DNA of 64,000 nucleotides from Clostridium polyendosporum (GCF_018332455.1 NZ_BOPZ01000012.1:31443-95442), one strand, 5' to 3'; numbered from the stretch's first letter, positions 837-63,579 are shown. Numbers and translations are program-made. Notes: a model not told the origin generated them from the letters alone.

Positions 837-2093
837 TTATCTTATAAATCTACCTTCACTACCATCAGTTTTAATTGTATAAAAAATATAGCTGTTTTTA
901 TCTGTTATATAAATTGGGAATAAAAAAATTCTATCTTTTACTAAAAATATTTGTCCAGGATAAAGGTTATCCTTTGAAACATTAGATATAGTTTTAGTGT
1001 TTAAATTATACTTCTTTAAGAAAAAGTCATTATTTTCATAATTTCTAACATCGTTTGCGATAAAGTAAATATGGTTTTTATCCAAATTAAATGGTATACA
1101 ATTTGTATTTGTAGAAGCGTATGAGAATAGAGTTTTTTTATTGCAAGTTTTTATGTTATATTGAATCAAATAGACTTTATTATTACTAGAAGTATCCCCC
1201 TTGGTGATATGTGAACGGCTATAATAAATATAATCATTATCTACAATAAAATTTAATATAGTATCATTTAACACCTTGGTCAATCTCGTACCGTCTAAAT
1301 TCATTGAATAAAGGAAAGAAGACCAGTTGTTCGTATTATTCTCAGTGTTTTTAAAATTCATCTGTGTGATAGTTTGAAGATATATTTTATCATTAATCAC
1401 TACTAAGTTAGATACATAAAGTATATCTTCTTTCAATTGAATTGGATCAAGTTTTTGACCATTAATGTGGATTCTAAAAACACATTTTTTTTCAGGTTTT
1501 AAGTAATAAATTATATCTTTATAAATATAATATGAGATACATGTATCGTCAATGTTTATGGTGTCTTCTCCAGTTAAAGAAGTTTTTGTGAGAGTTTCGT
1601 TTAAGGTTATATAGTAAAGAGTATTATTTATTATGCACATCATTTTTCCTGCAGGAATATTAAGTTTCTTCATCATAGTTGAACCATCGGACATTACTCT
1701 ATAAATTTGTTTTTCAAGAGCTATTATTGTAGAAAAATATATATACGGTTCATTATAAGTGATAAACCCTCCATTTCTCATGTTTCCTTGTAAAGTAGGT
1801 TCATAAAAAGTTTTTGATAAAACTTGGCTTGCTGTCATTTCACGAAGTGAAATCTGACTCAATCTCAGTAGGCTCGGTGCCTGCTTAGATTTATTGATAG
1901 GTACAGTTAATGAAGAAGGGCTAAGGGTAATATACTCCTTTAGTTGCTTTTTAGATATATTAGTTGTTTGTTCAATGGCTTGAACAGTGGGTATTACTTT
2001 TAAATACTTAAAATATATTACATAGTGTGAGAAAAAGGCTATAGCAGCTATTATATTATAAATAATGGGAAGTGGTATGTGTTTTTTTTTCAT
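837..2093 (-). CDS. Membrane-anchored hypothetical protein with DUF5050-like beta-propeller repeats; the N-terminal region carries an in-frame copy of the dispersed repeat
   Basis: A 418-aa ORF with an N-terminal hydrophobic anchor. Repeated YxxxxDG…KL motifs match the DUF5050 type. Residues ~70-88 (PSLLRLSQISLREMTASQ) are encoded by repeat copy R1. Confidence 0.6.
   Translation of the reverse strand: MKKKHIPLPIIYNIIAAIAFFSHYVIYFKYLKVIPTVQAIEQTTNISKKQLKEYITLSPSSLTVPINKSKQAPSLLRLSQISLREMTASQVLSKTFYEPTLQGNMRNGGFITYNEPYIYFSTIIALEKQIYRVMSDGSTMMKKLNIPAGKMMCIINNTLYYITLNETLTKTSLTGEDTINIDDTCISYYIYKDIIYYLKPEKKCVFRIHINGQKLDPIQLKEDILYVSNLVVINDKIYLQTITQMNFKNTENNTNNWSSFLYSMNLDGTRLTKVLNDTILNFIVDNDYIYYSRSHITKGDTSSNNKVYLIQYNIKTCNKKTLFSYASTNTNCIPFNLDKNHIYFIANDVRNYENNDFFLKKYNLNTKTISNVSKDNLYPGQIFLVKDRIFLFPIYITDKNSYIFYTIKTDGSEGRFIR
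1833..1888. repeat. Dispersed palindromic repeat copy R1 (modules A+B) lying inside a CDS
   Basis: The sequence gtcatttcacgaagtgaaatctgactcaa + tcagtaggctcggtgcctgcttag matches the intergenic repeat family: an A module tttcacNNNgtgaaa palindrome and a B module ggcWtcgagcc hairpin. Confidence 0.7.
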
Positions 2094-2255
2094 CTAAATC
2101 ACCTTTATTAGTATTTCCCATAGTGGTATTTTCTTAGTATTTTTTTTGATTTAATTTTAGTATAGATAGATAATGATTAAAAATAAGTTAATAGAAATAA
2201 AAAGACTATTAAGATAAAGATAACAGAAGATCAGAGCATATGGTTATAAAAATAA

Positions 2256-2325
2256 AACTGAGCAGGTATCGAACTTGCTCAGTTTTAGCTAGATTTCACT
2301 TTGTGAAGTCGCAATAAACTAAAAG
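2256..2325. repeat. Dispersed repeat copy R2 (modules B+A)
   Basis: The sequence ctgagcaggtatcgaacttgctcag hairpin + agatttcactttgtgaagtcgcaa. Confidence 0.7.
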
Positions 2326-2378
2326 ACAACTTGTATCTTTAGTCGTCTTTGTAATAAGTAATATTAAATAAAACTATA

Positions 2379-3926: not shown

Positions 3927-3947
3927 GAGTTACGTAGGTAACTTTTT
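3927..3947 (+). terminator. Intrinsic terminator after spmB (agttacgtaggtaact + TTTTT)
   Basis: A perfect 7-bp palindromic stem followed by a T run. Confidence 0.7.
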
Positions 3948-3949
3948 AC

Positions 3950-4118
3950 TTGCTACCATTTCATAAGATGAAATCTAACTCAAACTATATATACACAACT
4001 TCATAACTGAATTTGTAATTCATGAAAAAGCATTGGATGTCGAGGCTATTTTCATGAATTTTTTTAGGGGTGAAGTTGTGTATCTTTAGTAGGCTCGATG
4101 TCTACTTAACTGAGTTAT
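3950..4118. repeat. Dispersed repeat copy R4 (modules A + C + B, composite)
   Basis: It reads atttcataagatgaaatctaactcaa (A), then atacacaacttca…aattcatgaaaaagcattggatgtcgaggctattttcatgaatt…tgaagttgtgtatc (a complete module C with outer and inner inverted repeats), then taggctcgatgtcta (B). Confidence 0.75.
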
Positions 4119-6723: not shown

Positions 6724-6751
6724 AAGGCAATTTTAAAAGATTGCCTTTTTT
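6724..6751. terminator. Bidirectional intrinsic terminator (aaggcaa…ttgcctt + TTTTT)
   Basis: A stem-loop flanked by A and T runs lies between the convergent ABC permease and MATE genes. Confidence 0.8.
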
Positions 6752-6757
6752 ATTATT

Positions 6758-6830
6758 GTTATTGCACAAAGTGAAATCTGGCTAAGGCTGAGAGGGCTCG
6801 ATGCCTACTTAACTTGAGTTTTAATCTTTA
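6758..6830. repeat. Dispersed repeat copy R5 (A+B)
   Basis: The sequence ttgcacaaagtgaaatctggctaaggctgagagggctcgatgcctacttaacttgag. Confidence 0.75.
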
Positions 6831-6848
6831 AATACAGATATGTCTTTC

Positions 6849-8189
6849 TTAAATGTTCTTATGTTTTCTTCTAAATATAATAAAAATAAGAATTCCGTCT
6901 ATGATCCATTGTATTGAAGTAATGATCCAGACATAAATTACTGATAATTTTAGAAGGTATATTATTACAAACATTAATGGTACCCTTATAATCCAACTGG
7001 TGAAAATAGATACTTTTAGTGGACTTTTTGTGTCACCATTACCTTTAAGTGCTCCGCCCACTACCATGGAGATTGCTATAAAAGGTTGTTCTATAGCAGC
7101 TATCATAAGACATAAAGCTCCTAATCTTATTACCTCTTGTTCTGATGAATTTATAAATAAAGAAATTAGTGTTCTAGGAAATAAGAAAAATAGCATTGAG
7201 CAAAAGGTCATCACTAAGGTTGCTAAAAAAATAGATACATATGCATATTCTTTTGCGCCCTTGTAGTCTTTTTCACCAATCTTATGACCTACTAGTGCTG
7301 TTGCAGCAACAGCAAAACCCCAACCAGGCATAAAAGATATTGATTCTATAGCCGTAGTAATTTGATTAGCTGCAAAGGCTATGCTTCCTAAAGATACAAT
7401 AAAGAAATTACTTAATAGTCTGCTTATGCTAAAGGCACCCTCTTGAAATGATGATGGTATTGAAAGGTCAAATAATCCTTTCAGCATAGAAGTATTCAAA
7501 TCTTTAATATACTTTAATCTTACCTTTATTGATGACACATTGTACATATAGAATACAATAAATAAAAATCCTATAATTTGAGCAGTTGTTGTAGCTATCG
7601 CTGCTCCCATTGTTCCTAATGTAGGAAATCCAAGCTTACCAAAGATTAAAATATAATCTAATGAAAGGTTAACTATGTTTACAATAATTGATGCTAAAAG
7701 TGGGGTTTTAGTATTACCAAATCCTCTTAAAGCTGCATTTAAAGCGTTCATTATCATATTAAATCCAATACCAATGGAAGTGATTTTCATATAAACTGAT
7801 CCTAGAATTACAACTTGTTTTTCTGCGCCCACAGCTGTTAACAGGTGTGTAGAAAGTAGGAAGAAGGTTAGACTGAAAAGTATAGATATAAATAGAGAAG
7901 TTAAAAAGCCTAAAGTAGCATATTCTTCCGCCATAGCATATTCTTTTGCTCCTACGTTTCTTGCCACAAGTGAAGTAATGCCTATAGATATACCACAAGA
8001 TATTAAAATGTTAGAAAAAGTATATAATATCTCTGAACTTAATCCTACACTACTTAGAGCCAAATTACCTCCGTATTGACCAACCATCATGGTATCAAAA
8101 ACCCATATCATCATATATAAGGTCATTTCACCCACAGCAGGAAGGGCAAGCTTTAGTACGTCTTTTACTATTTTTCTATTAAACTTCAT
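6849..8189 (-). CDS. MATE-family multidrug efflux transporter
   Basis: A 446-aa protein with 12 TM-like segments and an architecture typical of MATE (NorM/DinF-like). Confidence 0.85.
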   Translation of the reverse strand: MKFNRKIVKDVLKLALPAVGEMTLYMMIWVFDTMMVGQYGGNLALSSVGLSSEILYTFSNILISCGISIGITSLVARNVGAKEYAMAEEYATLGFLTSLFISILFSLTFFLLSTHLLTAVGAEKQVVILGSVYMKITSIGIGFNMIMNALNAALRGFGNTKTPLLASIIVNIVNLSLDYILIFGKLGFPTLGTMGAAIATTTAQIIGFLFIVFYMYNVSSIKVRLKYIKDLNTSMLKGLFDLSIPSSFQEGAFSISRLLSNFFIVSLGSIAFAANQITTAIESISFMPGWGFAVAATALVGHKIGEKDYKGAKEYAYVSIFLATLVMTFCSMLFFLFPRTLISLFINSSEQEVIRLGALCLMIAAIEQPFIAISMVVGGALKGNGDTKSPLKVSIFTSWIIRVPLMFVIIYLLKLSVIYVWIITSIQWIIDGILIFIIFRRKHKNI

Positions 8190-10583: not shown

Positions 10584-10676
10584 AATTCATGTTAAATAAA
10601 ATTTAATAGGCATCGAGCCTGTTAAATTTGAGCCAGATTTCACTTCGTGAAATGGCAGCAAATAGCCTCGGCATTA
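10584..10676. repeat. Dispersed repeat copy R6 (fragment of C + B + A in inverted orientation)
   Basis: The sequence aattcatgttaaataaaatttaat aggcatcgagcct gttaaatttgagccagatttcacttcgtgaaatggcagcaaatagcctcggca. It is near-identical in order to the copy at 33711-33800. Confidence 0.75.
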
Positions 10677-13465: not shown

Positions 13466-13494
13466 TTTATAACATAAACTAATATTATATTTGG
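13466..13494 (+). promoter_or_regulatory. Sigma-A-type promoter driving the metG T-box leader (TTGACA-17-TAATAT)
   Basis: A consensus -35 with a 17-nt spacer and a -10-like hexamer lies just upstream of the T-box leader. Confidence 0.5.
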
Positions 13495-13499
13495 TAAAT

Positions 13500-13818
13500 G
13501 CATTGAAAAGAATAGTAGTAAGGATAAGTGTCTAAAGAGAACTGGATTAGGTGAAAGCCAGTGACAGGTACCTTTATGAAGATGGCCTTGGAGCAGATTT
13601 CCTGAATTTTTTAGGGAAGTACGGGAGCAACCGTTATATTGCAAAGTGATAAAAGCTTAGTGAATAAGTTAAATTAGTTCTTAAAGAATTAGTTAATTAT
13701 TAGTTTGCTAGTGGAGTTACTTAGAGAGATGTTTATCGTGAGATAAGCATAAAGTAGAGTGGTACAGCGTATTTTACGCCTCTACATAGACAATAATGTC
13801 TATGTAGAGGCGTTTTTA
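13500..13818 (+). promoter_or_regulatory. T-box riboswitch leader (Met specifier) with terminator/antiterminator for metG
   Basis: It has an AGAGA element, a specifier-like AUGA at 13575-13578, and a T-box core aaaGUAGAGUGGUACAGCG (consensus AGGGUGGNACCGCG). The GUAGAG is complementary to the 5' arm CUCUAC of the terminator, which gives the antiterminator. The terminator stem gcctctacatagac/gtctatgtagaggc (13777-13812) is followed by UUUUU. Confidence 0.75.
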
Positions 13819-13820
13819 TT

Positions 13821-13855
13821 TGTTGCCATTTCACAAAGTGAAATCTGGCTCAAAT
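13821..13855. repeat. Dispersed repeat copy R7 (module A only), within the metG 5'UTR
   Basis: The sequence tgttgccatttcacaaagtgaaatctggctcaa lies between the T-box terminator and the metG RBS. Confidence 0.7.
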
Positions 13856-13901
13856 TTATATTAATATAGTTAAATGTAGTTACAAAAAGGAGGCAATAAG
13901 A

Positions 13902-15836
13902 ATGAGTAAAAAGACTTTTTATATTACAACACCAATTTATTATCCATCAGCTAATCTGCATATAGGAAATACATATACAACTGTAGCTGCAGATGCGATA
14001 GCAAGATTTAAGAGATTAACAGGATATGAGGTTATGTTCTTAACAGGAACTGATGAACATGGACAGAAGATTCAGAGAATAGCCGAAGATAAAGGAGTAA
14101 CACCAAAGGAATATGTTGATGGCATTGTAGCAGGAATTAAGGAATTATGGACTATGATGAATATTAGTTATGATAAGTTTATCAGAACTACTGATGATTA
14201 TCATATTAAAGCTGTTCAAGATATATTTAAGAAGTTATATGATAAAGGAGATATATATAAAGATTCATATGAAGGATGGTACTGTACACCATGTGAATCC
14301 TTTTGGACAGAGACACAGCTTGCAGATGGCAATTGCCCGGATTGTGGAAGACCAGTTGAAAAAGCAAAGGAAGAAGCATATTTCTTCAAAATGAGCAAGT
14401 ACGCTGATAAACTAATAGAACATATAGAAAATAATCCAGAGTTCATTCAACCTGAGTCAAGAAAGAATGAGATGTTAAATAATTTCTTAAGACCAGGATT
14501 ACAAGATCTATGTGTATCAAGAACCAGCTTTAATTGGGGTATTCCTGTAACTTTTGATGAAAAGCATGTAATATATGTATGGATAGATGCTCTTTCAAAT
14601 TATATTACTGCTTTAGGATATGGTAGTGAAAATACTGAATTTTATCAGAAGTATTGGCCAGCAGATGTTCACTTAATTGGAAAAGATATTTTAAGATTCC
14701 ATACAATTTATTGGCCAATTATGCTTATGGCATTAGATCTTCCACTTCCAAAACAGGTATTTGGTCATGGATGGTTATTAGTTGACGGCGGAAAGATGTC
14801 AAAGTCAAAGGGAAATGTGGTGGATCCAGTAACTCTTGTGAATAATTTTGGAGTTGATGCAGTAAGATATTACCTATTGAGAGAAATACCATTTGGTGCA
14901 GACGGATTATTTAATAATGAAATATTTATAAAGAAGATTAATTCAGACTTAGCTAATGATTTAGGAAACCTTTTATCAAGAACAGTTACAATGATAGAGA
15001 AATACTTTGAGGGGGAAATTCCTGCTCCTATAACTAAGGATGTCTTAGATGATGAACTTATAAACCTAGCTCTTACTGCTCCGAAGAAGGTTGAAGATGC
15101 TATAAATGCCTTAAAGATTCCTGAAGCTCTTGAGGTGATTTGGGAACTTATAGGAAGAGCAAATAAGTACATTGATGAAACAACTCCATGGATACTTGCT
15201 AAGGATGATAGCAATAAAGAAAGACTTGGAACAGTTCTCTATAATTTAATCGAAAGCTTAAGATTTATTTCTGTTATGATTTATGCATTTTTACCAACAA
15301 CTAGTGAGAAAATCAATGAACAAATAAATACAGAGACTACAGCTTGGAATAGCTTATCTTCTTTTGATGGAACTAGCGCAGGAACAAAGGTAAACAAGGG
15401 AACTGTTATATTTCCAAGAATAGATGTAGAAGCTAAACTAGCTGAACTTGAAGCTTTAAGAGAAGCACAAATAAAGACAATGCAAAAATCTCAGATTAAA
15501 CCTATCAAGGAAGAAATAACTATAGATGATTTTGAAAAGATAGATTTAAGAGTAGTTAAGGTACTAAGTTGTGAACCTGTAAAGGGAGCAAAGAAGCTTT
15601 TAAAGCTGAAGGTAGACTTAGGTGGAGAAGAGAGACAGGTTATTTCAGGTATAGCTAAATACTACAAGCCAGAAGAACTTATAGGAAAAAATGTTGTGCT
15701 TGTAGCAAATCTTAAACCTGTAAAATTAAGAGGAGAGTTATCTCAAGGAATGATACTTGCTGCAGCAACAGATGATGATTCTGAACTTTTTGTAGTAAAT
15801 CCAGGTGAGCTGCCAACAGGAAATATAGTACGATAA
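13902..15836 (+). CDS. metG: Methionyl-tRNA synthetase with a C-terminal tRNA-binding (EMAP/Trbp111-like) domain
   Basis: It has HIGN (…ANLHIGNTYT…), KMSKS (…GKMSKSKGN…), and a zinc knuckle CTPCES…CPDCG. A T-box leader lies upstream. Confidence 0.95.
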   Translation: MSKKTFYITTPIYYPSANLHIGNTYTTVAADAIARFKRLTGYEVMFLTGTDEHGQKIQRIAEDKGVTPKEYVDGIVAGIKELWTMMNISYDKFIRTTDDYHIKAVQDIFKKLYDKGDIYKDSYEGWYCTPCESFWTETQLADGNCPDCGRPVEKAKEEAYFFKMSKYADKLIEHIENNPEFIQPESRKNEMLNNFLRPGLQDLCVSRTSFNWGIPVTFDEKHVIYVWIDALSNYITALGYGSENTEFYQKYWPADVHLIGKDILRFHTIYWPIMLMALDLPLPKQVFGHGWLLVDGGKMSKSKGNVVDPVTLVNNFGVDAVRYYLLREIPFGADGLFNNEIFIKKINSDLANDLGNLLSRTVTMIEKYFEGEIPAPITKDVLDDELINLALTAPKKVEDAINALKIPEALEVIWELIGRANKYIDETTPWILAKDDSNKERLGTVLYNLIESLRFISVMIYAFLPTTSEKINEQINTETTAWNSLSSFDGTSAGTKVNKGTVIFPRIDVEAKLAELEALREAQIKTMQKSQIKPIKEEITIDDFEKIDLRVVKVLSCEPVKGAKKLLKLKVDLGGEERQVISGIAKYYKPEELIGKNVVLVANLKPVKLRGELSQGMILAAATDDDSELFVVNPGELPTGNIVR

Positions 15837-22680: not shown

Positions 22681-22712
22681 GGGAATTCAAAAAATTTGAG
22701 TTCCCTTTATTT
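22681..22712 (+). terminator. Intrinsic terminator after rsmA
   Basis: The stem gggaattcaaa/tttgagttccc followed by TTTATTT. Confidence 0.65.
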
Positions 22713-22776
22713 GTTGCCATTTCATAAAGTGAAATCTAGCTAAAACTGAGCAGACGTGATGTCTGGTCAGTTTTAC
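22700..22776. repeat. Dispersed repeat copy R9 (A+B)
   Basis: The sequence ttgttgccatttcataaagtgaaatctagctaaaactgagcagacgtgatgtctggtcag. Confidence 0.75.
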
Positions 22777-22936
22777 TTTTTAAAAACTTTTATGAATTAT
22801 ATTTTTCTATAAATTTAACTGTTATTAGTGAATTTTTCATTAGTATTAATTAAAAGGTACTAAAAATGAATTTGTAATATAACATTAAAACTATCATATA
22901 ATATAAAGAATAAATGTATGTGGAGGGACTGTTAAG

Positions 22937-24283
22937 TTGTCACACGGAAAATTATATAGGAGCTTCATAATATTACAAGAGGATGAGCGAGGATATTCAG
23001 TTTCAGGAGATAAACCTCTATCAGGATATGCTAAGATTGAGGCGAAGAATGACAAATGTAAAATATCTTTCTATGCACAAAATCTTAGAAAAGATGGGGA
23101 TAAGTGCTGTAGGGTTTTAATATGCTCAAGGAAAGATAAAAAGCAGCTTATTAAATTAGGACCGGTGAATATTAGTGAACAAGGTAAGGCAGAAGCAACT
23201 AGTGAGTTTACTGTAGATAACATAGGCGGAACAGGCATTCATTATGAAAAGATATCAGGTGCAGCTTTATGTAAAGAGAAAGCTGGTAAGATCATTTTTT
23301 TAATGGTGGGATTTATGAATGGAGAAATGCCTTCTGATGATTGGAAGAACTATAATATGATAACAGTAAAAACGAGTTCAGAAGAAGAATTTAAAGTAAT
23401 TGAAGAAAAGATTCAGGAAAAGATTGAAGTTAAAAAAGAAGAAATAAAAGTTGAAAAAGAGGATATTAAAGAAAAATGTCCAGAAGAAAAGATCGAATTT
23501 GAAATTAAAGAAGATATGAAAGAATATATGAAAGAAGATATGAAAGAGGATTATTCAATGGAAGAATATATGCAGGAAGAATATATGCAGGAAGAACGAC
23601 ATCGCAATAATGACAATAATCAAGATTATAATGAACATAATTATGATTATAAGCATGAGGAGATAGTTAAGAGTGAAATAGAAGAAGAATTAAAAGATAA
23701 AAAAGATTATAAAAATCATTATGAAGAAGAGGCGAAGAATATAAAAGCATTAGAAGAAGAAAGTAAATTTGATAATTACGAAAGACATATAGAAGATACA
23801 AAGAGAGAAGATACAAAGAGAGAAGATACAAAGAGAGAAGAAACAGATTGGGAAGATAATTTTACGATAAGGGGTAGTGTAGGAGAGTTTTTCCTAAGTG
23901 TAGTAGGTGATTTTGAAGAGGCAAGAGGTCATAAAGACATAAAATACTGTAAGTGGTATAAGGTTCCAGTTGAGAGCTTAGATGTAATGTGTAACATATC
24001 AAATTATAATAAATATACAGTGGTTTATTATCCAATGATAAATTACTATCCATACATTAAGAAACATGGACATTTTATGATAGGTTTTAAATGTGATGCA
24101 GCTGGAAAGATGAAGTATTTAGTCTATGCAATTGCTGGTACAAAGGATAAATCAAATCAACCTTATGGTGGAAAATCTGGCTTTGTAACTTGGATGCCAT
24201 ATCCAGATAGGGGTACGAATATAGGTTATTGGCTTATGTTCTATGATTTTAAGAATTCTATGGTCGTTGTACCAATGAAGTAG
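22937..24283 (+). CDS. Hypothetical protein with a central acidic/low-complexity tandem-repeat region (TTG start)
   Basis: A 448-aa ORF preceded by ggaggga. It has an N-terminal ~150-aa domain, a middle region rich in E/K/D/Y with repeats (MKEDMKE, EEYMQEEYMQEE, EDTKREDTKREDTKRE), and a C-terminal ~150-aa aromatic-rich domain. No family was recognised. Confidence 0.55.
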   Translation: MSHGKLYRSFIILQEDERGYSVSGDKPLSGYAKIEAKNDKCKISFYAQNLRKDGDKCCRVLICSRKDKKQLIKLGPVNISEQGKAEATSEFTVDNIGGTGIHYEKISGAALCKEKAGKIIFLMVGFMNGEMPSDDWKNYNMITVKTSSEEEFKVIEEKIQEKIEVKKEEIKVEKEDIKEKCPEEKIEFEIKEDMKEYMKEDMKEDYSMEEYMQEEYMQEERHRNNDNNQDYNEHNYDYKHEEIVKSEIEEELKDKKDYKNHYEEEAKNIKALEEESKFDNYERHIEDTKREDTKREDTKREETDWEDNFTIRGSVGEFFLSVVGDFEEARGHKDIKYCKWYKVPVESLDVMCNISNYNKYTVVYYPMINYYPYIKKHGHFMIGFKCDAAGKMKYLVYAIAGTKDKSNQPYGGKSGFVTWMPYPDRGTNIGYWLMFYDFKNSMVVVPMK

Positions 24284-24492
24284 TTCAGGATAAGCAATTT
24301 TGGTTCTAAGTTAGATTATGAACTTGTTTAATCGTAAATTACACATTATGAAGGTGTCGTATCAGTGCACGTTAAGGTGGTGTTGAACGGCTCCTTTTTA
24401 TATTTTGCATAGTTGTACAATATTATAATCATAAAAGTTCAGTACATATAGTATATTTTATCATGAAGGGTATATATTTAGGAGGGAATAAG

Positions 24493-25077
24493 GTGAATCA
24501 ATTTATTAATAAGAAGCAGCTCGGGGTAACTTTGATACTTATAGGTTTAATGATGGTACTTTTTTTAGCCCAAAAAGGTTTCAATGATAGATTAAAACTT
24601 GTCATGCTTATGGATAGTAATATAACAAACTTAAAAGAGTATAGTATAGGCACGGAAGGATATTCTTATAGCTTGCCAGCAGAATGGACAACTAATCAAA
24701 AGAGTTATCCAGGTAGTTATATTGTTTATCATAACTCTTTTAGAAGCGAGAGCATGGGAATTATAGGATATGTTGAAGTTATGAATTCAAAGGATGGGTT
24801 AGAACATATAACGATTAGTGATGGTAATAAATTACCACAAAATAAGGTGAAAGAATATAAATCATTAAAAACTAAAATAAACGATAAGGAAGGATATAGG
24901 ATATCTTACAAATTAAACTTAGATGAAGGTAAGCTTGTATACGATAACGTTTATTACATTAAAGTAGATGAGGAAAAGTACTTCAAGTTATTATTTAGCG
25001 TTGGAGAGGAGAAGTATAAAGAAAACCTTTTAGCAGTATTTGATGCCATAGTTGAGACTTGTAAGGTCAATAAATAA
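24493..25077 (+). CDS. Hypothetical membrane-anchored protein
   Basis: It has an N-terminal TM (LGVTLILIGLMMVLFLA). A GTG at 24493 lies 6 nt after ggaggg. Confidence 0.5.
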   Translation: MNQFINKKQLGVTLILIGLMMVLFLAQKGFNDRLKLVMLMDSNITNLKEYSIGTEGYSYSLPAEWTTNQKSYPGSYIVYHNSFRSESMGIIGYVEVMNSKDGLEHITISDGNKLPQNKVKEYKSLKTKINDKEGYRISYKLNLDEGKLVYDNVYYIKVDEEKYFKLLFSVGEEKYKENLLAVFDAIVETCKVNK

Positions 25078-25080
25078 AGT

Positions 25081-25205
25081 TGAGCAGGCATCGAGCCTAT
25101 TTAACTTGAGTCAGATTTCACTTCGTGAAATGATGGCAAATAAAGCTGAGAGGACATCGAGTCTAATCAGTTTTAACCAGGTTTCACTTTGTAAAATTGC
25201 AGGAA
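25081..25205. repeat. Dispersed repeat copy R10 (two tandem B+A units)
   Basis: The pattern is gagcaggcatcgagcct…cagatttcacttcgtgaaatgatggcaaat, then gagaggacatcgagtct…caggtttcactttgtaaaattgcagg. Confidence 0.75.
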
Positions 25206-25298
25206 ATAAGATTTGATTTAATATTCTAATAGTATTATAATTTATCTTAGAGTTACGGGAGAAGCATGTGCTTCTCCTATTTTTAAGGTGGTGAAAGT

Positions 25299-33689: not shown

Positions 33690-33850
33690 TAAACAACTTC
33701 AATCTTTAAATAATTCCTGTTAAATAAAATTTAATAGGCATCGATCCTATTAAATTTGAACCAGATTTCACCTTGTGAAATGGCAGCATAATAGCCTCGA
33801 CATGCAATGCTTTTTCAGGAATTATAAGTTTAGTTATGAAGTTGTGTATC
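33690..33850. repeat. Dispersed repeat copy R11: a nested composite in which module C is interrupted by modules B+A
   Basis: The outer arms aaacaacttcaat…atgaagttgtgtatc and the inner arms aattcctg…caggaatt enclose aggcatcgatcct (B) and ccagatttcaccttgtgaaatggcagc (A). Confidence 0.75.
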
Positions 33851-38079: not shown

Positions 38080-38754
38080 ATGAAGGAAAATTTAAAGATA
38101 AATGATAAAAACTTATTTATAGAAGATAATCTTGAGTTTATATATAAAACTACAAATACTATCTGTAAAAGAAAGTTGGATCATAGAAACGATGAAGAAA
38201 TAAGTGTTGCTCTTCAGGCATTCAATAAAGCTTGTGATACATTCAGTGAAAAAAAGGGGAATTTCTTTTCGTATTCTAGAGCAGTGATTAAAAATGCTCT
38301 TATTGATTTTTTTAGGAGTTCTAAAAAAGTTCCACTACTTTCTTTTGAAGAAGAAGAAAATTATGATTACATAGATAATACACTTTCAATTTCCCAATAT
38401 GAAAAAACTTTAGAAGGGCAAAATCGTGAGGAAGAAATAGGTCTTTTTAAGAAGGAACTTTCAGAGTATGGGATTGACTTTTTTCAGCTTGTGGAGGCAT
38501 CGCCTTCTCATAAAGATACAAGAGAGGAACTTCTTAATATAGCGATTTATTGCATAAGGGATCAGGAAGTATTAATTACATTAAAAAAAAATAAAAGGCT
38601 TCCAATAAGTAAAATAAGTAGCGGTACAAATAAGAGCAAAAAGCTTATTGAAAAGTGGAGAAAGTATCTAATTGCTCTTATTATAGTACTTTCAAATAAA
38701 GAGTATCTCTATTTAAAATCTTATTTAAGTATTAGGCAAAGAGGTGAGAAGTAA
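38080..38754 (+). CDS. sigI: RNA polymerase sigma factor SigI-like
   Basis: The region …DEEISVALQAFNKACDTFSEKKGNFFSYSRAVIKNALIDFFR… parallels B. subtilis SigI (…DDEFSIGLIAFNEAIDQYSPDKGSSLLSFAEVVIRRRVIDYIR…). The stop overlaps the rsgI start (TAATG). Confidence 0.7.
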   Translation: MKENLKINDKNLFIEDNLEFIYKTTNTICKRKLDHRNDEEISVALQAFNKACDTFSEKKGNFFSYSRAVIKNALIDFFRSSKKVPLLSFEEEENYDYIDNTLSISQYEKTLEGQNREEEIGLFKKELSEYGIDFFQLVEASPSHKDTREELLNIAIYCIRDQEVLITLKKNKRLPISKISSGTNKSKKLIEKWRKYLIALIIVLSNKEYLYLKSYLSIRQRGEK

Positions 38755-39689
38755 TGATCAGGAGAGGAATAGTAATGGAGGTTAAAGGGAAAAAGGTTCT
38801 TCTTATGACTTCGGCAGGAGAATTTACTATGGTTAAGGTAGGAAAAGAATTGCCAGTCAGGGGAAGAGAATATGAAGGAAAGGTTCTGGTGAAAAGTACT
38901 ATAAACAAGAGAATAATTGCAGCAGTAGCCTCTTTTGTACTTATTTTTACTTTGGGAGCAAAAGATTATTATACCCCAGTTAAGGCGTTAGAGATTTATG
39001 CAAGTTCTAATATAAAACTGGAACTTAATAGATGGGATAGAGTTATAGAAGCATCTCCTCTTAATGATAATGGTAGGAAGGTTCTTTCTAAAATAGCCTT
39101 AAATAACAGAGATATTGAGAAAGCTGTTAATATGATTTTAGAACAAGTTTCAAAGGAGAATATTTTAGGAGGTCAGCATCAGATATCTATTAATTCAATA
39201 AATGGAAAGTTAAATATTGACAACCTTAAAAAAATTATAGAAGAAAAAGGATTAAAGATCATTGATATCAACTCTTATAATGAAAATAATAAAATAAAAA
39301 GTCAACAGAGTGAAGTAATTAATGAGGAAAAGAGTAATAGTAAAAATAATGAAGAAAAAAATTTAAGTGAAAATAAATCGAATAAATCTATAGATAATAA
39401 AGGTAATAATGGACGGGAAGTTAATAATAGTAACAAGCATAGTATCTCACAAGACCAAGACACTAATAAGGATGTGAATTATAGTAAAAATAGCCAAGAT
39501 AATAAAATCAAGAGTTCTAGTTCATCTAGTAATGAAAAAGAAATAAAAGGTAATTCAAAACAACAATTAAAAGATACGGGAATAGAAAAGACTGATGGTA
39601 ATTATAAACATAATTTACAGGATACTCAAGGGAGCAATGAGCAATCAAATAGTTCTGAAAAAGAAAATAATACAATAAAGAAAAAGTAA
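38754..39689 (+). CDS. rsgI: Anti-sigma-I factor RsgI-like: RsgI N-terminal domain, single TM, then an Asn/Ser/Lys-rich low-complexity extracytoplasmic tail
   Basis: The N-terminus MIRRGIVMEVKGKKVLLMTSAGEFTMVKV matches the RsgI_N pattern (M.RGII.E…V.LLT.DGEF). A TM spans about aa 53-70. The C-terminal ~150 aa have no recognisable globular sensor domain. Confidence 0.65.
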   Translation: MIRRGIVMEVKGKKVLLMTSAGEFTMVKVGKELPVRGREYEGKVLVKSTINKRIIAAVASFVLIFTLGAKDYYTPVKALEIYASSNIKLELNRWDRVIEASPLNDNGRKVLSKIALNNRDIEKAVNMILEQVSKENILGGQHQISINSINGKLNIDNLKKIIEEKGLKIIDINSYNENNKIKSQQSEVINEEKSNSKNNEEKNLSENKSNKSIDNKGNNGREVNNSNKHSISQDQDTNKDVNYSKNSQDNKIKSSSSSSNEKEIKGNSKQQLKDTGIEKTDGNYKHNLQDTQGSNEQSNSSEKENNTIKKK

Positions 39690-39711
39690 AAATGAATAGG
39701 AATAGACTTAC

Positions 39712-39779
39712 TCGCTTTTAGTTAGATCTTACTTTGTAAAATAGCAGTAAATAAGGTGATGGGGACAGTACGTCCCCAG
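39712..39779. repeat. Dispersed repeat copy R13 (degenerate A) plus the hairpin ggggacagtacgtcccc
   Basis: The pattern ttagatcttactttgtaaaatagcag, then a GC hairpin. The hairpin may act as the asnS (-) terminator. Confidence 0.5.
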
Positions 39780-51920: not shown

Positions 51921-51954
51921 AAACTCATCTAGTCTTTGCTAGATGAGTTTTTTT
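51921..51954. terminator. Bidirectional terminator (aaactcatctag…ctagatgagttt + T7)
   Basis: A 12-bp perfect stem. Confidence 0.85.
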
Positions 51955-51955
51955 A

Positions 51956-51996
51956 CTTGCCATCATTTCACAAAGTGAAGTCTGGCTAAAACTTAA
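51956..51996. repeat. Dispersed repeat copy R14 (module A)
   Basis: The sequence ttgccatcatttcacaaagtgaagtctggctaaaac. Confidence 0.7.
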
Positions 51997-52021
51997 TAGA
52001 TTTAATAACTATTAAATTTTA

Positions 52022-54172
52022 TTACTTAGTATTCTTAATATCTGATGGCTTTACATAGCTTAATATTTCTTGTTTGATTTTTTCTGCTTCTTCTGAAAGC
52101 TGTGCATTACCGGAATCTTGGGATGTTAATTTTTCGCTTAAGAGCATCATTACTAAGTTTTCAAAGACATTATGAATGTTATTTTCTCCATCCTTGGATC
52201 CAGTGGTGATAAGGGTTTTCGGAACAATATCAATCTTGGAGGTTTTTATAGCGTCAGCAAAGTTATTCATTATTTCTTGAACTATCTTGAATTGAGCTCC
52301 ACCAAAGGCATTAACCTGCTCTTTTGCAGCAATGGCCTTTGATATACCAACTCTAGCCTCTCTATCAGCATCGGCTTCCCCCACAGTTTTAATCTTAAAG
52401 GATTCTGCTTCACCAGTCTGCTTGAGTCTGAAAGCCTCAGCTTCAGCTTGCTGCTTTGTTTGATATGCAGAAGCTTCTGCTTGTTGTTTTAATCTAAAAG
52501 CTTCAGCTTCTGCTTGTTGTTTAACTTTGTATGCTTCAGCCTCTGATAATCTTTGTATTTTCTCAGCATCTTGTCTAGATTTCATAAGTTCAGCTTTACC
52601 TTGGTTTTCTTGAATTCTAATATTAATGTCTGATTCAGTAAGTGAAGTTTGCTGTTTTGCAATAGCCTGAGCTTCTTTTAATTCTTTTTCCTTTTCGGCA
52701 GCGGTCTGTTGAGTGGCATAGGTTTCAAGTTGTTCTTTAGCAATTTGTCTTGAACGCAGCTGAGTTAATATTTGTTCAATGTTACTATCATTCTTTGAAC
52801 TTGTTGGTGTACCAATTAATACTTCTTCAAGTTCTAGATTATAATGTGAGAATTTAGCTTTCATTTCTACTGAAGATTGGTTTTGGATTTCATTTCTTTG
52901 TTGAATTAATTCTATGAGCGTCTTTGTTTGACCAATGTTTTTAAAGTATGCCGATACCATTGGGTCTAGGGTTTGATCAACTAGCATTTTAATATCACCG
53001 AACCTTTGAATAACCATAGGAGCTTTCTTATAATCGATATGAAATACTACTGATAATGGAAGTGACGGTTCAAAGGCATCCTTAGATATTAAGCTAACTT
53101 CCTTAAGATTTTCATCATATTTATGATTTCCATTTTGATTACTTATCCACTTCAATATTACATTAGTTGTTGGAACTTGGATTATGCTACCTGCATAGGT
53201 GTTAAAAGCGTATTTACCTGGCATAAGTGCTTCCCCCCAGACACCTCGATAACCCTTTTGGACAAGCTCGCCGTGTTTATAATCTTCACCAGAAGAGTCT
53301 TCCCCTTTAGCGCCCATATAGGATACAACTACACCAACATATCCAACAGGTATTATAGTTTTGGAGATATATTCGACTGTAGCAAATAATCTATTTATAA
53401 AGTAAGAACCATCAGCGAGTACTTGATACTGTCTACCTCTATATCCGCCTGCTTTTAAAAATCTTTCGGGATCTTGAAAATTGTTGTGGTAATTTTCGTC
53501 ACTTGGATCATCTCCAACAGTAGGGCATATGATATTGTCTTTTCCTAGTGATGGACCGTCATGTACTGTTACTATACCAACTAAATCACTTTCACCTTGA
53601 ATTACAATAGGATCAAACCCATTCCTTATGGCTATCTTTTGGGCCATTTCTAAAATTGTTTTCTGTTCACTGCTGTTACCCATTGGTAAGTAATACGTTT
53701 TATTTTCAGTAATTATTATAAATTGTGCAAGGTTAAAGGAGTAGGTACCTTCACGGATGATGCCTCTTTGAGGACCTCTTTGTCCACCATTTTGAATAAA
53801 AGCTCTAACATCTTGGAAGTTATTACACTGAGGAACTATTTTGCCTAAGGTTTGAGTTGGTTCTAAGGGTTTGCCATCTCTTGAAAATACATAAGCAATT
53901 TTTCCCTGAGGTATTGTAACTAAAGGGACAGTGTGTATTTTATAGAGTAATGGAGTTTTAAAGTGAATACCACCTCTTAGTACATCGGGTTGATAACCGG
54001 CTTCACCATTTAATGCAATGATTTGTTCCTTTAGTGAGCCTTTTGATGACCACCATTTTTCTACAATAGCAACCTTATCATTTGGAATGATTTTGAATCC
54101 TGATAGCCAAACTAAGAAAAAGAAACCAAGGATTCCTATTCCGGTATTGATTAATAATGTTGTTTCGACCAT
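52022..54172 (-). CDS. Flotillin-like SPFH/band-7 domain membrane protein (YqiK-like) with C-terminal tandem Ala/Glu/Gln repeats
   Basis: An N-terminal TM, then an SPFH-like region. The C-terminal region has about four ~18-aa repeats (QQAEAEAFRLKQQAEASAYQTKQQAEAEAFRLKQTGEAESFKIK). Confidence 0.7.
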   Translation of the reverse strand: MVETTLLINTGIGILGFFFLVWLSGFKIIPNDKVAIVEKWWSSKGSLKEQIIALNGEAGYQPDVLRGGIHFKTPLLYKIHTVPLVTIPQGKIAYVFSRDGKPLEPTQTLGKIVPQCNNFQDVRAFIQNGGQRGPQRGIIREGTYSFNLAQFIIITENKTYYLPMGNSSEQKTILEMAQKIAIRNGFDPIVIQGESDLVGIVTVHDGPSLGKDNIICPTVGDDPSDENYHNNFQDPERFLKAGGYRGRQYQVLADGSYFINRLFATVEYISKTIIPVGYVGVVVSYMGAKGEDSSGEDYKHGELVQKGYRGVWGEALMPGKYAFNTYAGSIIQVPTTNVILKWISNQNGNHKYDENLKEVSLISKDAFEPSLPLSVVFHIDYKKAPMVIQRFGDIKMLVDQTLDPMVSAYFKNIGQTKTLIELIQQRNEIQNQSSVEMKAKFSHYNLELEEVLIGTPTSSKNDSNIEQILTQLRSRQIAKEQLETYATQQTAAEKEKELKEAQAIAKQQTSLTESDINIRIQENQGKAELMKSRQDAEKIQRLSEAEAYKVKQQAEAEAFRLKQQAEASAYQTKQQAEAEAFRLKQTGEAESFKIKTVGEADADREARVGISKAIAAKEQVNAFGGAQFKIVQEIMNNFADAIKTSKIDIVPKTLITTGSKDGENNIHNVFENLVMMLLSEKLTSQDSGNAQLSEEAEKIKQEILSYVKPSDIKNTK

Positions 54173-60129: not shown

Positions 60130-60258
60130 TTGGGCAGGTATCCAGCCTATTAAAGATACACAACTTTAATCAGTAAACAATTCATAAAAATAAGAATTTA
60201 GGCATCAGCTCTATTAACTTTGAACCAGATTTTACTTCATGAAATGATAGCAAATAAA
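60130..60258. repeat. Dispersed repeat copy R15 (B + C-fragment + B + A)
   Basis: The pattern ttgggcaggtatccagcct…agatacacaacttt…aattcataaaaa…taggcatcagctct…ccagattttacttcatgaaatgatagcaaat. Confidence 0.7.
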
Positions 60259-63390: not shown

Positions 63391-63579
63391 AAGTATATAT
63401 CAGTTATTAATAGCCTCAATATATGATATTTTTTAATGAATTATACATTCAGTTGTGAAGTTAAACATCTATATATTTCTTAAAATAAAAAAAATTTCGA
63501 AAAGTTTAAATAAAAAAAAGGATTTTTCTAAGTTAATATAGAAATATAAAATCATTAAAGCAACTGGAGGTGGAGTGAA

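Follow-up and report, generated by a model that had tools for sequence, protein, structure and literature searches.

Close to one end of the window, by which we mean the whole 64,000-nt stretch of DNA that was analysed (chromosomal, Clostridium polyendosporum JCM 30710, 30.9% G+C), lies a minus-strand gene for a membrane-anchored DUF5050 protein (Table 1). The 418-aa reading frame that an earlier note had given here agrees with our translation and with the annotation, its product being identical to the hypothetical protein CPJCM30710_16790 of this species. Pfam DUF5050 (PF16472) matched residues 102–391 with E = 8e-16 and 58.5 bits, against a gathering cutoff of 27. The AlphaFold2 model, built on an input alignment of 35 sequences and reaching a mean pLDDT of 81, consists of a helix at residues 8–32, a stretch from 34 to 97 with pLDDT below 50, and an all-beta propeller from about residue 100 to 418 with pLDDT above 90. 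The gene also carries, within its reading frame, a copy of a short repeat composed of two hairpins (B and A). The residues encoded by this copy have a pLDDT of 37–44 and show no predicted secondary structure.

Table 1. Features of the host gene and selected copies of the two-hairpin repeat, in window coordinates
Feature	Position	Strand	Description
Host gene	837–2093	-	418-aa DUF5050 (LRP1-like beta-propeller) protein with N-terminal membrane anchor
Shine-Dalgarno-like sequence AAAGGTGAT	2098–2106	-	4 nt before the annotated ATG (2091–2093)
Predicted transmembrane/signal-anchor helix	1998–2072 (codons 8–32)	-	AlphaFold2 pLDDT up to 91; hydropathy 1.3–1.5; same feature in homologues
Predicted disordered linker/stalk	1791–1997 (codons 33–101)	-	Holds the repeat-encoded segment; from AlphaFold2 and homologue linker lengths
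Beta-propeller domain	840–1790	-	Pfam DUF5050 at residues 102–391; AlphaFold2 strands reach residue 417
Intragenic B+A unit	1824–1896 (66-nt discrete unit about 1831–1896)	-	B then A on the coding strand; encodes residues 66–90 (INKSKQAPSLLRLSQISLREMTASQ)
Hairpin B of the intragenic copy	1861–1891	-	Two stem mismatches; no U-tail remaining on the sense strand
Hairpin A of the intragenic copy	1834–1858	-	ATTTCAC-TTC-GTGAAAT, perfect 7-bp core
Nearest intergenic family member	2250–2322	+	Abuts terminator 2322–2350 (minus strand) of the upstream 75-aa ORF
Tandem unit pair	25072–25210	+	Period 66 nt; among the window copies, 25072 comes nearest to the intragenic one (80.8%) and likewise has no stops in that frame
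B+A unit inside the loop of a 98-nt palindromic P element	33718–33796	+	Filled site; empty P at 2609–2706 and 3991–4088
Partial copy	13816–13858	-	Hairpin A only, GC core of B deleted; directly after the metG T-box terminator

Copies of this repeat are abundant in the window. The core palindrome ATTTCAC-N3-GTGAAAT was matched 22 times, both strands counted, where 0.28 matches were expected, and an nhmmer profile recovered at least 14 full or partial copies (about 14–16) in the 64 kb, or approximately one per 4.5 kb. Its length is about 66–72 nt, with a discrete unit of about 66 nt (22 codons), and is laid out as AAATAAA, hairpin B, a short spacer, hairpin A, GGCAGC and again AAATAAA. Hairpin B is made of a 12-bp stem with a CATCGAG-type loop and runs of A and T on its flanks, and hairpin A of 6–7 bp. 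Alignment and consensus fold revealed compensatory changes in 7 of the 18 consensus pairs, and most copies form much more stable structures than shuffled controls. They also showed that the ends of the unit do not pair: its two hairpins are separate and internal, and terminal inverted repeats are lacking. An Rfam scan of the window at the gathering threshold returned a T-box only, with the repeat family unmatched, and a scan of the tandem copies in E-value mode gave no match on the repeat. At 25198–25285 the L20 leader scored 24.9 bits, below its gathering score of 58.7, and this match was set aside as fortuitous.

The unit is also found nested with a second palindromic family, the P element. 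Two 98-nt P copies are uninterrupted (...AATTCATG|AAAATAGCC...), while two others hold a whole B+A unit at exactly that point. The converse nesting was also observed, a P element splitting one B+A unit between A and B at 3987–4090. AAATA flanks both sides of the P-nested unit and occurs once in the empty P; being AT-rich, it may just as well represent the end of the element itself. Judging by the filled and empty P sites and by the 66-nt tandem period, the B+A unit behaves as a discrete insert. The idea of a family designed to be coding, in the manner of the RPE discussed below, was rejected: the frame used in the host gene contains on average 1.6 stops per copy, and just 3 of 12 copies are open in it, among them the intergenic copies 25072 and 25138.

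We then consider the copy inside the gene. The seed profile scored it at 68 bits (nhmmer), and a leave-one-out profile at 55.9 bits (E = 2.6e-16), the match extending over model positions 2–69 of 72. Its identity to the consensus of the other copies, 79.5%, falls in the family range of 70–84%. Both hairpins are present in its minimum free energy structure (-18.2 kcal/mol, z = -2.7), the best intergenic copies reaching -21 to -29. By profile and by fold, the stretch is a genuine full-length member of the family. The presence of a repeat copy in frame within this ORF, as the earlier note had reported, is upheld. The extent given there (about 56 bp, 1833–1888) was too short, the full unit of about 66–72 nt spanning 1824–1896, and the peptide cited corresponds to residues 71–94 of the ORF, free of stops. 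The copy contains no stop in the frame used and one to three in each of the other five. Since 25 stop-free codons have a chance of about 0.1 per frame in intergenic-like sequence, the open frame of the repeat by itself carries little weight.

Several details distinguish the intragenic copy from its relatives. The tail of its hairpin B is GAGAUUGAGUC where the family has CAGUUUUAGCC; the stem mismatches, this changed tail and the weaker fold are consistent with little terminator activity of hairpin B here. At its A-end the neighbour is a weak AT hairpin (AAGTTTTTGATAAAACTT) beside TTGGC, where the family has TTTAT. The terminal AAATAAA is replaced by AAGCCAA, and no target-site duplication was recognisable at this copy.

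The position of the intergenic copies relative to transcription terminators is peculiar. In 8 of 13 copies inspected, the A-end TTTATTTGCTGCCATTTCAC directly follows an unrelated GC-rich hairpin, with the T-tract of the latter merging into the repeat end; these hairpins are the canonical terminators of the upstream genes, one of them a T-box terminator. An automated scan classified 6 of 14 copies as terminator-adjacent, against 0.29 expected at random intergenic placement and a maximum of 4 in 20,000 trials. Abutment to TTTAT or T-tracts is orientation-specific and the hairpins are subterminal. As many copies adjoin separate canonical terminators, the proposal that hairpin B copies are the only terminators of genes was rejected as a general rule. 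Hairpin B followed by TTTTATTT, at the far end of the unit, mimics a terminator, and this mimicry would explain the tandem pair. From these junctions, the family behaves like a small non-autonomous mobile element landing, in one orientation, on the T-tracts of intrinsic terminators. No Y1 transposase, RAYT or transposase of another type was found among the 52 window ORFs scanned against Pfam. The A-end of the intragenic copy does not immediately follow an intrinsic terminator hairpin with its T-tract, and this copy looks like an off-target event, or one whose junction has changed since. In the metG-leader copy, directly after a T-box terminator, the GC core of hairpin B has been lost, following the same logic as the weakened hairpin B of the intragenic copy.

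The search for the repeat outside the window covered 185,579 species-representative genomes, C. polyendosporum not among them, and a metagenome collection. The pattern AGATTTYACYTYRTGAAATG retrieved 25 singletons from unrelated phyla in the genomes, with about 17 expected by chance. In the metagenome collection, a loose pattern gave 38 singletons and a stricter 25-mer pattern none. In those outside matches that re-scored with the repeat profile (nhmmer), the searched core alone matched. A protein search with the 48-aa translation of the tandem repeat found nothing, and did not recover the host protein (P0001) either, which makes it a weak negative. As far as exact-core searches tell, the repeat family is apparently restricted to the C. 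polyendosporum lineage.

We also compared the host protein with its relatives. A search for homologous proteins recovered the host protein alone, and the closest relatives from an exhaustive phmmer search share 38, 33 and 31% identity with it. Of 34 homologues compared, 22 have a hydrophobic helix at the N-terminus and, after it, a linker of 30–140 aa (median about 71). In the closest ones this linker is polar and rich in S, T, N and K, whereas the repeat peptide is rich in L and R. Two syntenic orthologues, from C. manihotivorum (L026) and from a Logan contig (L065), have the neighbourhood LacI / DUF5050 / ... / Gate, Gate / ABC. Their proteins are 47% identical over the whole length, transmembrane anchor and linker included, which argues that the N-terminal region is translated in the relatives. 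The architecture of MKK, transmembrane helix, polar linker and propeller is common to the host protein and both orthologues. The orthologous loci (13.3 kb in L026 and 6.8 kb in L065) contain no repeat copies, in the gene or its surroundings, and the equivalent region of the window holds four or five. With 80 aa, the linker of the host protein exceeds those of the orthologues (65 and 66 aa) by 14–15 aa, which is not exactly 22. The linkers are strongly diverged and their alignment is unstable: MAFFT placed the corresponding gap at residues 61–75 in one alignment (A2) and at 34–47 in another (A6), the homologues being just 33–38% identical. The difference in length is compatible with an added segment, though no proof of one.

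Taken together, we consider it probable that a complete lineage-specific repeat unit lies in frame in this DUF5050 gene and adds about 22–25 residues to an unstructured stalk that links the transmembrane helix to the propeller. The segment would have arisen by insertion of a unit of noncoding origin and would be translated, and it may have survived as a 22-codon addition, close to neutral, to a linker tolerant of length. Assuming that the insert was the 66-nt unit of the tandem period, its 22 codons would have entered without a frameshift. A source copy of the 25072/25138 subtype could moreover have been read through unrepaired, since those intergenic copies are stop-free in the frame used. 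As an open stretch of this size arises by chance in about one frame in ten, the open frame would reflect survivorship and not design. The suggestion made at the outset, that the repeat forms a stalk or linker separating the membrane anchor from the DUF5050 domain, agrees with codon usage, the ribosome-binding site, the orthologue architecture and the disorder predicted at residues 34–97. It is favoured in particular by the disorder of the repeat residues in AlphaFold2 and by the 30–140-aa range of homologue linkers.

The insertion could instead be harmful, its hairpins in the mRNA attenuating transcription or translation or its hydrophobic, basic peptide impairing the stalk, in which case the gene would be an intact-looking allele that is decaying or down-regulated. 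Hairpin B does resemble an intrinsic terminator in other copies and the intragenic unit still folds (-18.2 kcal/mol, z = -2.7), but on the sense strand its hairpin B has two mismatches and no U-tract. Similarly, the L/R-rich peptide is unlike the S/T/N/K-rich linkers of the orthologues and the protein family evolves fast (33–38% identity to the syntenic orthologues); however, the ORF is complete, its propeller is modelled with pLDDT above 90, and P0001 keeps the residues that its relatives share, the 13 invariant columns of alignment A2 (P0001 and seven homologues) all being located in the propeller, residues 104–412. The copy is also as diverged from the consensus as the others, which argues against a very recent, unselected hit. 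We hold a harmful insertion to be unlikely.

Another explanation places the repeat outside the protein. According to the earlier note, translation might start downstream of it, at the methionine of MRNGGF, with a fortuitous open frame upstream; that residue, numbered M95 there, is actually M105. The repeat would then belong to the 5′ leader or to intergenic DNA, which the other copies of the window lie within or border, and the 104 upstream codons would be fortuitous. Both the Pfam match and the BLASTP alignment with the orthologue begin at residues 102–104, and M105 is preceded by AAGGA, with a pairing energy of -5.2 kcal/mol to the anti-Shine-Dalgarno sequence. However, just 2 nt separate this match from the ATG, and in energy it stands at the 25th percentile of random internal sites. 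In the ribosome-binding site comparison proposed in that note, the annotated ATG was best in match and spacing: its Shine-Dalgarno reached -6.9 kcal/mol, inside the interquartile range of the other starts of the window, while M105 was weaker and internal M86 had no Shine-Dalgarno match.

Codon usage is likewise at odds with a start at M105. In the ORF frame, residues 1–65 gave a log-likelihood ratio of 0.267 per codon, and both other frames gave negative values; as references, 65-codon windows of true genes gave 0.34 ± 0.10 and wrong-frame windows a mean of -0.75. The repeat-encoded segment, with -0.059 per codon, is atypical and intermediate between coding and noncoding. In AT-rich DNA, the probability of an open frame by chance is 3e-4 to 3e-3 for 65 codons and 2e-6 to 9e-5 for 104 codons. 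The host protein begins with MKKK followed by the hydrophobic helix, and its N-terminal MKK...FFS.Y..YK.L resembles that of the homologue P0002. A start at M105 would delete the transmembrane anchor that both syntenic orthologues and most homologues keep. From codon usage, the best ribosome-binding site, the MKKK and transmembrane helix, and the architecture of the homologues, the part of the ORF upstream of the repeat looks real as coding sequence. The downstream start, which needs 65–104 codons open by chance and drops the conserved anchor, is thus disfavoured and appears quite improbable.

It is still less probable that the inserted sequence has been co-opted, either as an amphipathic stalk segment or through hairpins that slow the ribosome after the signal anchor and so assist membrane targeting. 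The position right after the anchor and the start of the linker is compatible with such a role. The perfect conservation of hairpin A in the intragenic copy would also fit, but intergenic copies conserve it equally. Moreover, AlphaFold2 predicts no secondary structure there (pLDDT 37–44), the codon usage is non-adapted and the orthologues do without the repeat. Finally, a chance or convergent nucleotide similarity, which the earlier note had named as the finding that would overturn its reading and for which nothing more than the AT-rich background speaks, is refuted by the leave-one-out E = 2.6e-16 across the whole unit, both hairpins and spacer covered, and disfavoured by the lack of any match to the exact 56-mer in 100 shuffles.

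An in-frame unit of noncoding origin, the reading that we prefer, has precedents. RPE of Rickettsia (Ogata et al. 2000), in the passage of PMC10969869 that deals with them, are repeats of about 100–150 bp with a conserved open peptide, present in dozens of genes per genome and with around half of the copies intragenic. As in RPE, a small palindromic repeat is found in frame and adds a peptide where the structure permits it, leaving the host ORF intact. The unit described here differs by its length (about 66 nt), by the lack of a consistently open frame (3 of 12 copies), by the lack of any sequence relationship and by its phylum; in addition, one copy of about 14–16 is intragenic in the 64-kb window. 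ERIC (about 127 bp) are similarly described, in the part of PMC10969869 concerned with intragenic copies (Delihas 2007), as otherwise intergenic repeats that occasionally occur in frame and provide new peptide segments. Our case shares the in-frame copy of an otherwise intergenic repeat with intragenic ERIC, from which it differs in family and phylum.

Among Firmicutes, the pneumococcal BOX, RUP and SPRITE repeats (Croucher et al. 2011; PMC3049150) fold strongly and occur preferentially at 3′ ends and between convergent genes. BOX is built of A, B and C modules, SPRITE is terminator-like, and some CDSs are intact despite box modules (PMC3049150), as is the case in Streptococcus suis, where such modules lie inside intact CDSs (PMC10969869, PMC3049150). 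Compared by description, the present family resembles BOX and SPRITE as a Firmicute repeat that is modular, strongly folded and enriched at 3′ ends, with hairpin B and its T-run terminator-like. In contrast to BOX, RUP and SPRITE, its units abut pre-existing canonical terminators in a fixed orientation, and its sequences, module sizes and host are different. The bcr1–bcr3 repeats of the Bacillus cereus group (Okstad 2004; Kristoffersen 2011) are, in the section of PMC6542083 devoted to them, 100–400 bp long, with features of mobile elements and TTTAT motifs at their ends. Again compared by description, both are lineage-restricted Firmicute repeats and the unit here is bounded at both ends by AAATAAA, the complement of TTTATTT, although with about 66 nt it is shorter than bcr and often adjoins terminators, which bcr elements are not known to do. 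Insertions of repeats that create coding sequence are therefore less rare than the earlier note had stated, as the RPE, ERIC and BOX precedents illustrate (PMC10969869, PMC3049150). We would class the case as a further instance of an established type of event, brought about by a repeat family that is apparently undescribed.

The unit lacks the terminal inverted repeats of a classical MITE. It resembles the IS200/IS605-derived PATEs and REP/BIME in having hairpins near both ends, in lacking long terminal inverted repeats, and in being placed in a specific orientation immediately 3′ of a short stretch rich in T. The targets of IS605/606/608 are TTTAA/TTAT/TTAC. As in PATEs and REP/BIME, the unit's own end mimics the target, and there is no clear target duplication at the intragenic copy. 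Unlike the situation for PATEs and REP-RAYT, the window contains no transposase, and target and cleavage sites are deduced from junction sequences only. A broader scheme can be put forward tentatively, and we would sooner expect it to fail than to hold: the copies would be undescribed, lineage-restricted, non-autonomous elements that home in one orientation onto terminator T-tracts, possibly mobilised in trans by an IS200/IS605-type single-strand transposase, and whose off-target hits in genes recurrently add peptides, making them a Firmicute counterpart of RPE with this gene as first example. With a unit of 22 codons, and with one frame free of stops in some variants, recurrent addition of peptides is conceivable.

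For the annotation of this gene, the long ORF with the upstream start would be the correct model. The repeat family is notable in being dense, modular and nested with a second palindromic family, and the terminator positioning of its copies points to an insertion mechanism that targets terminators. At the level of the protein, a disordered stalk of variable length would explain why the repeat is tolerated. The locus would provide a clean, well-bounded case of noncoding repeat DNA that is read as protein in a Gram-positive anaerobe.

Within the DUF5050 gene, hairpin B of the intragenic copy of the B+A repeat unit is followed by TAGATTTATT when read along the (+) strand, opposite the coding strand of the ORF, and this stretch (1867-1885) was scored as terminator-like by consensus scan. 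Such a hairpin could stop antisense transcription only. The surroundings of this gene were compared with syntenic loci of two relatives, L065 (Logan SRR18045685_1002) and L026 (C. manihotivorum CP025746, 612934-626202). Each of these loci has a MatE-MarR-YgjP block separating the DUF5050 gene from the small ORF and the Gate-Gate genes, whereas in the window a MatE gene lies elsewhere, at 6849-8189, after the ABC genes. This difference in MatE position is a local rearrangement between species.

The window carries a second interspersed family, P, a 98-nt near-perfect palindrome with ends ATACACAACTT...AAGTTGTGTAT, present as whole copies and halves. P and the B+A unit are nested in both directions: the P loop houses a B+A unit at 33718-33796 and ~10589-10666 and, reciprocally, P lies between hairpins A and B of a repeat unit at 3987-4090. 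Another type of repetition, a 15-nt tandem repeat (GAAGATACAAAGAGA, ~4 copies, 23780-23839), was observed inside ORF 22937-24283 (DUF7922), where it forms an in-frame pentapeptide repeat.

Features discussed, with window coordinates
Feature	Position	Remark
T-box leader	13494-13902	upstream of metG; Rfam RF00230, 106 bits
T-box terminator	13776-13813	metG leader
metG	13902-15836	
PsbP-like gene	24463-25077	repeat end at stop codon, 25070-25077
RsgI-like gene	38754-39689	repeat end at stop codon, 39684-39689
Band-7 protein gene	52022-54172	repeat end at stop codon, 52022-52024
P, whole copies	2609-2706, 3991-4088	
P, halves	10553-10605/10787-10822, 33681-33717/33797-33855, 60148-60185, 63438-63473	
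Repeat copies with A-end after terminator	2250-2322, 3946-3986, 6749-6819, 13816-13858, 22706-22778, 39684-39755, 51952-52024, 60186-60258	

Three genes have a stop codon that is overlapped or provided by the AAATAAA terminus of a repeat unit. Rfam gave a sub-threshold match to the L20 leader at 25198-25285 (-), with E=0.007 and 24.9 bits where the gathering score is 58.7. This match shares sequence with the hairpin preceding lgt and with the end of repeat copy 25138, and is probably due to chance. Between the T-box terminator and the metG start sits a partial repeat copy with hairpin A only, in which hairpin B has lost its GC core.

In the copies listed last in the table, the repeat unit has its A-end (reading TTTATTTGCTGCC...) directly 3′ of the T-tract of a canonical terminator hairpin unrelated to it, and its orientation relative to the terminator is constant. 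Adjacency was detected for 6 of 14 copies by automated scan, against 0.29 expected, and for 8 of 13 by eye. This same-orientation abutment suggests that the repeat unit inserts by a terminator-targeting mechanism.
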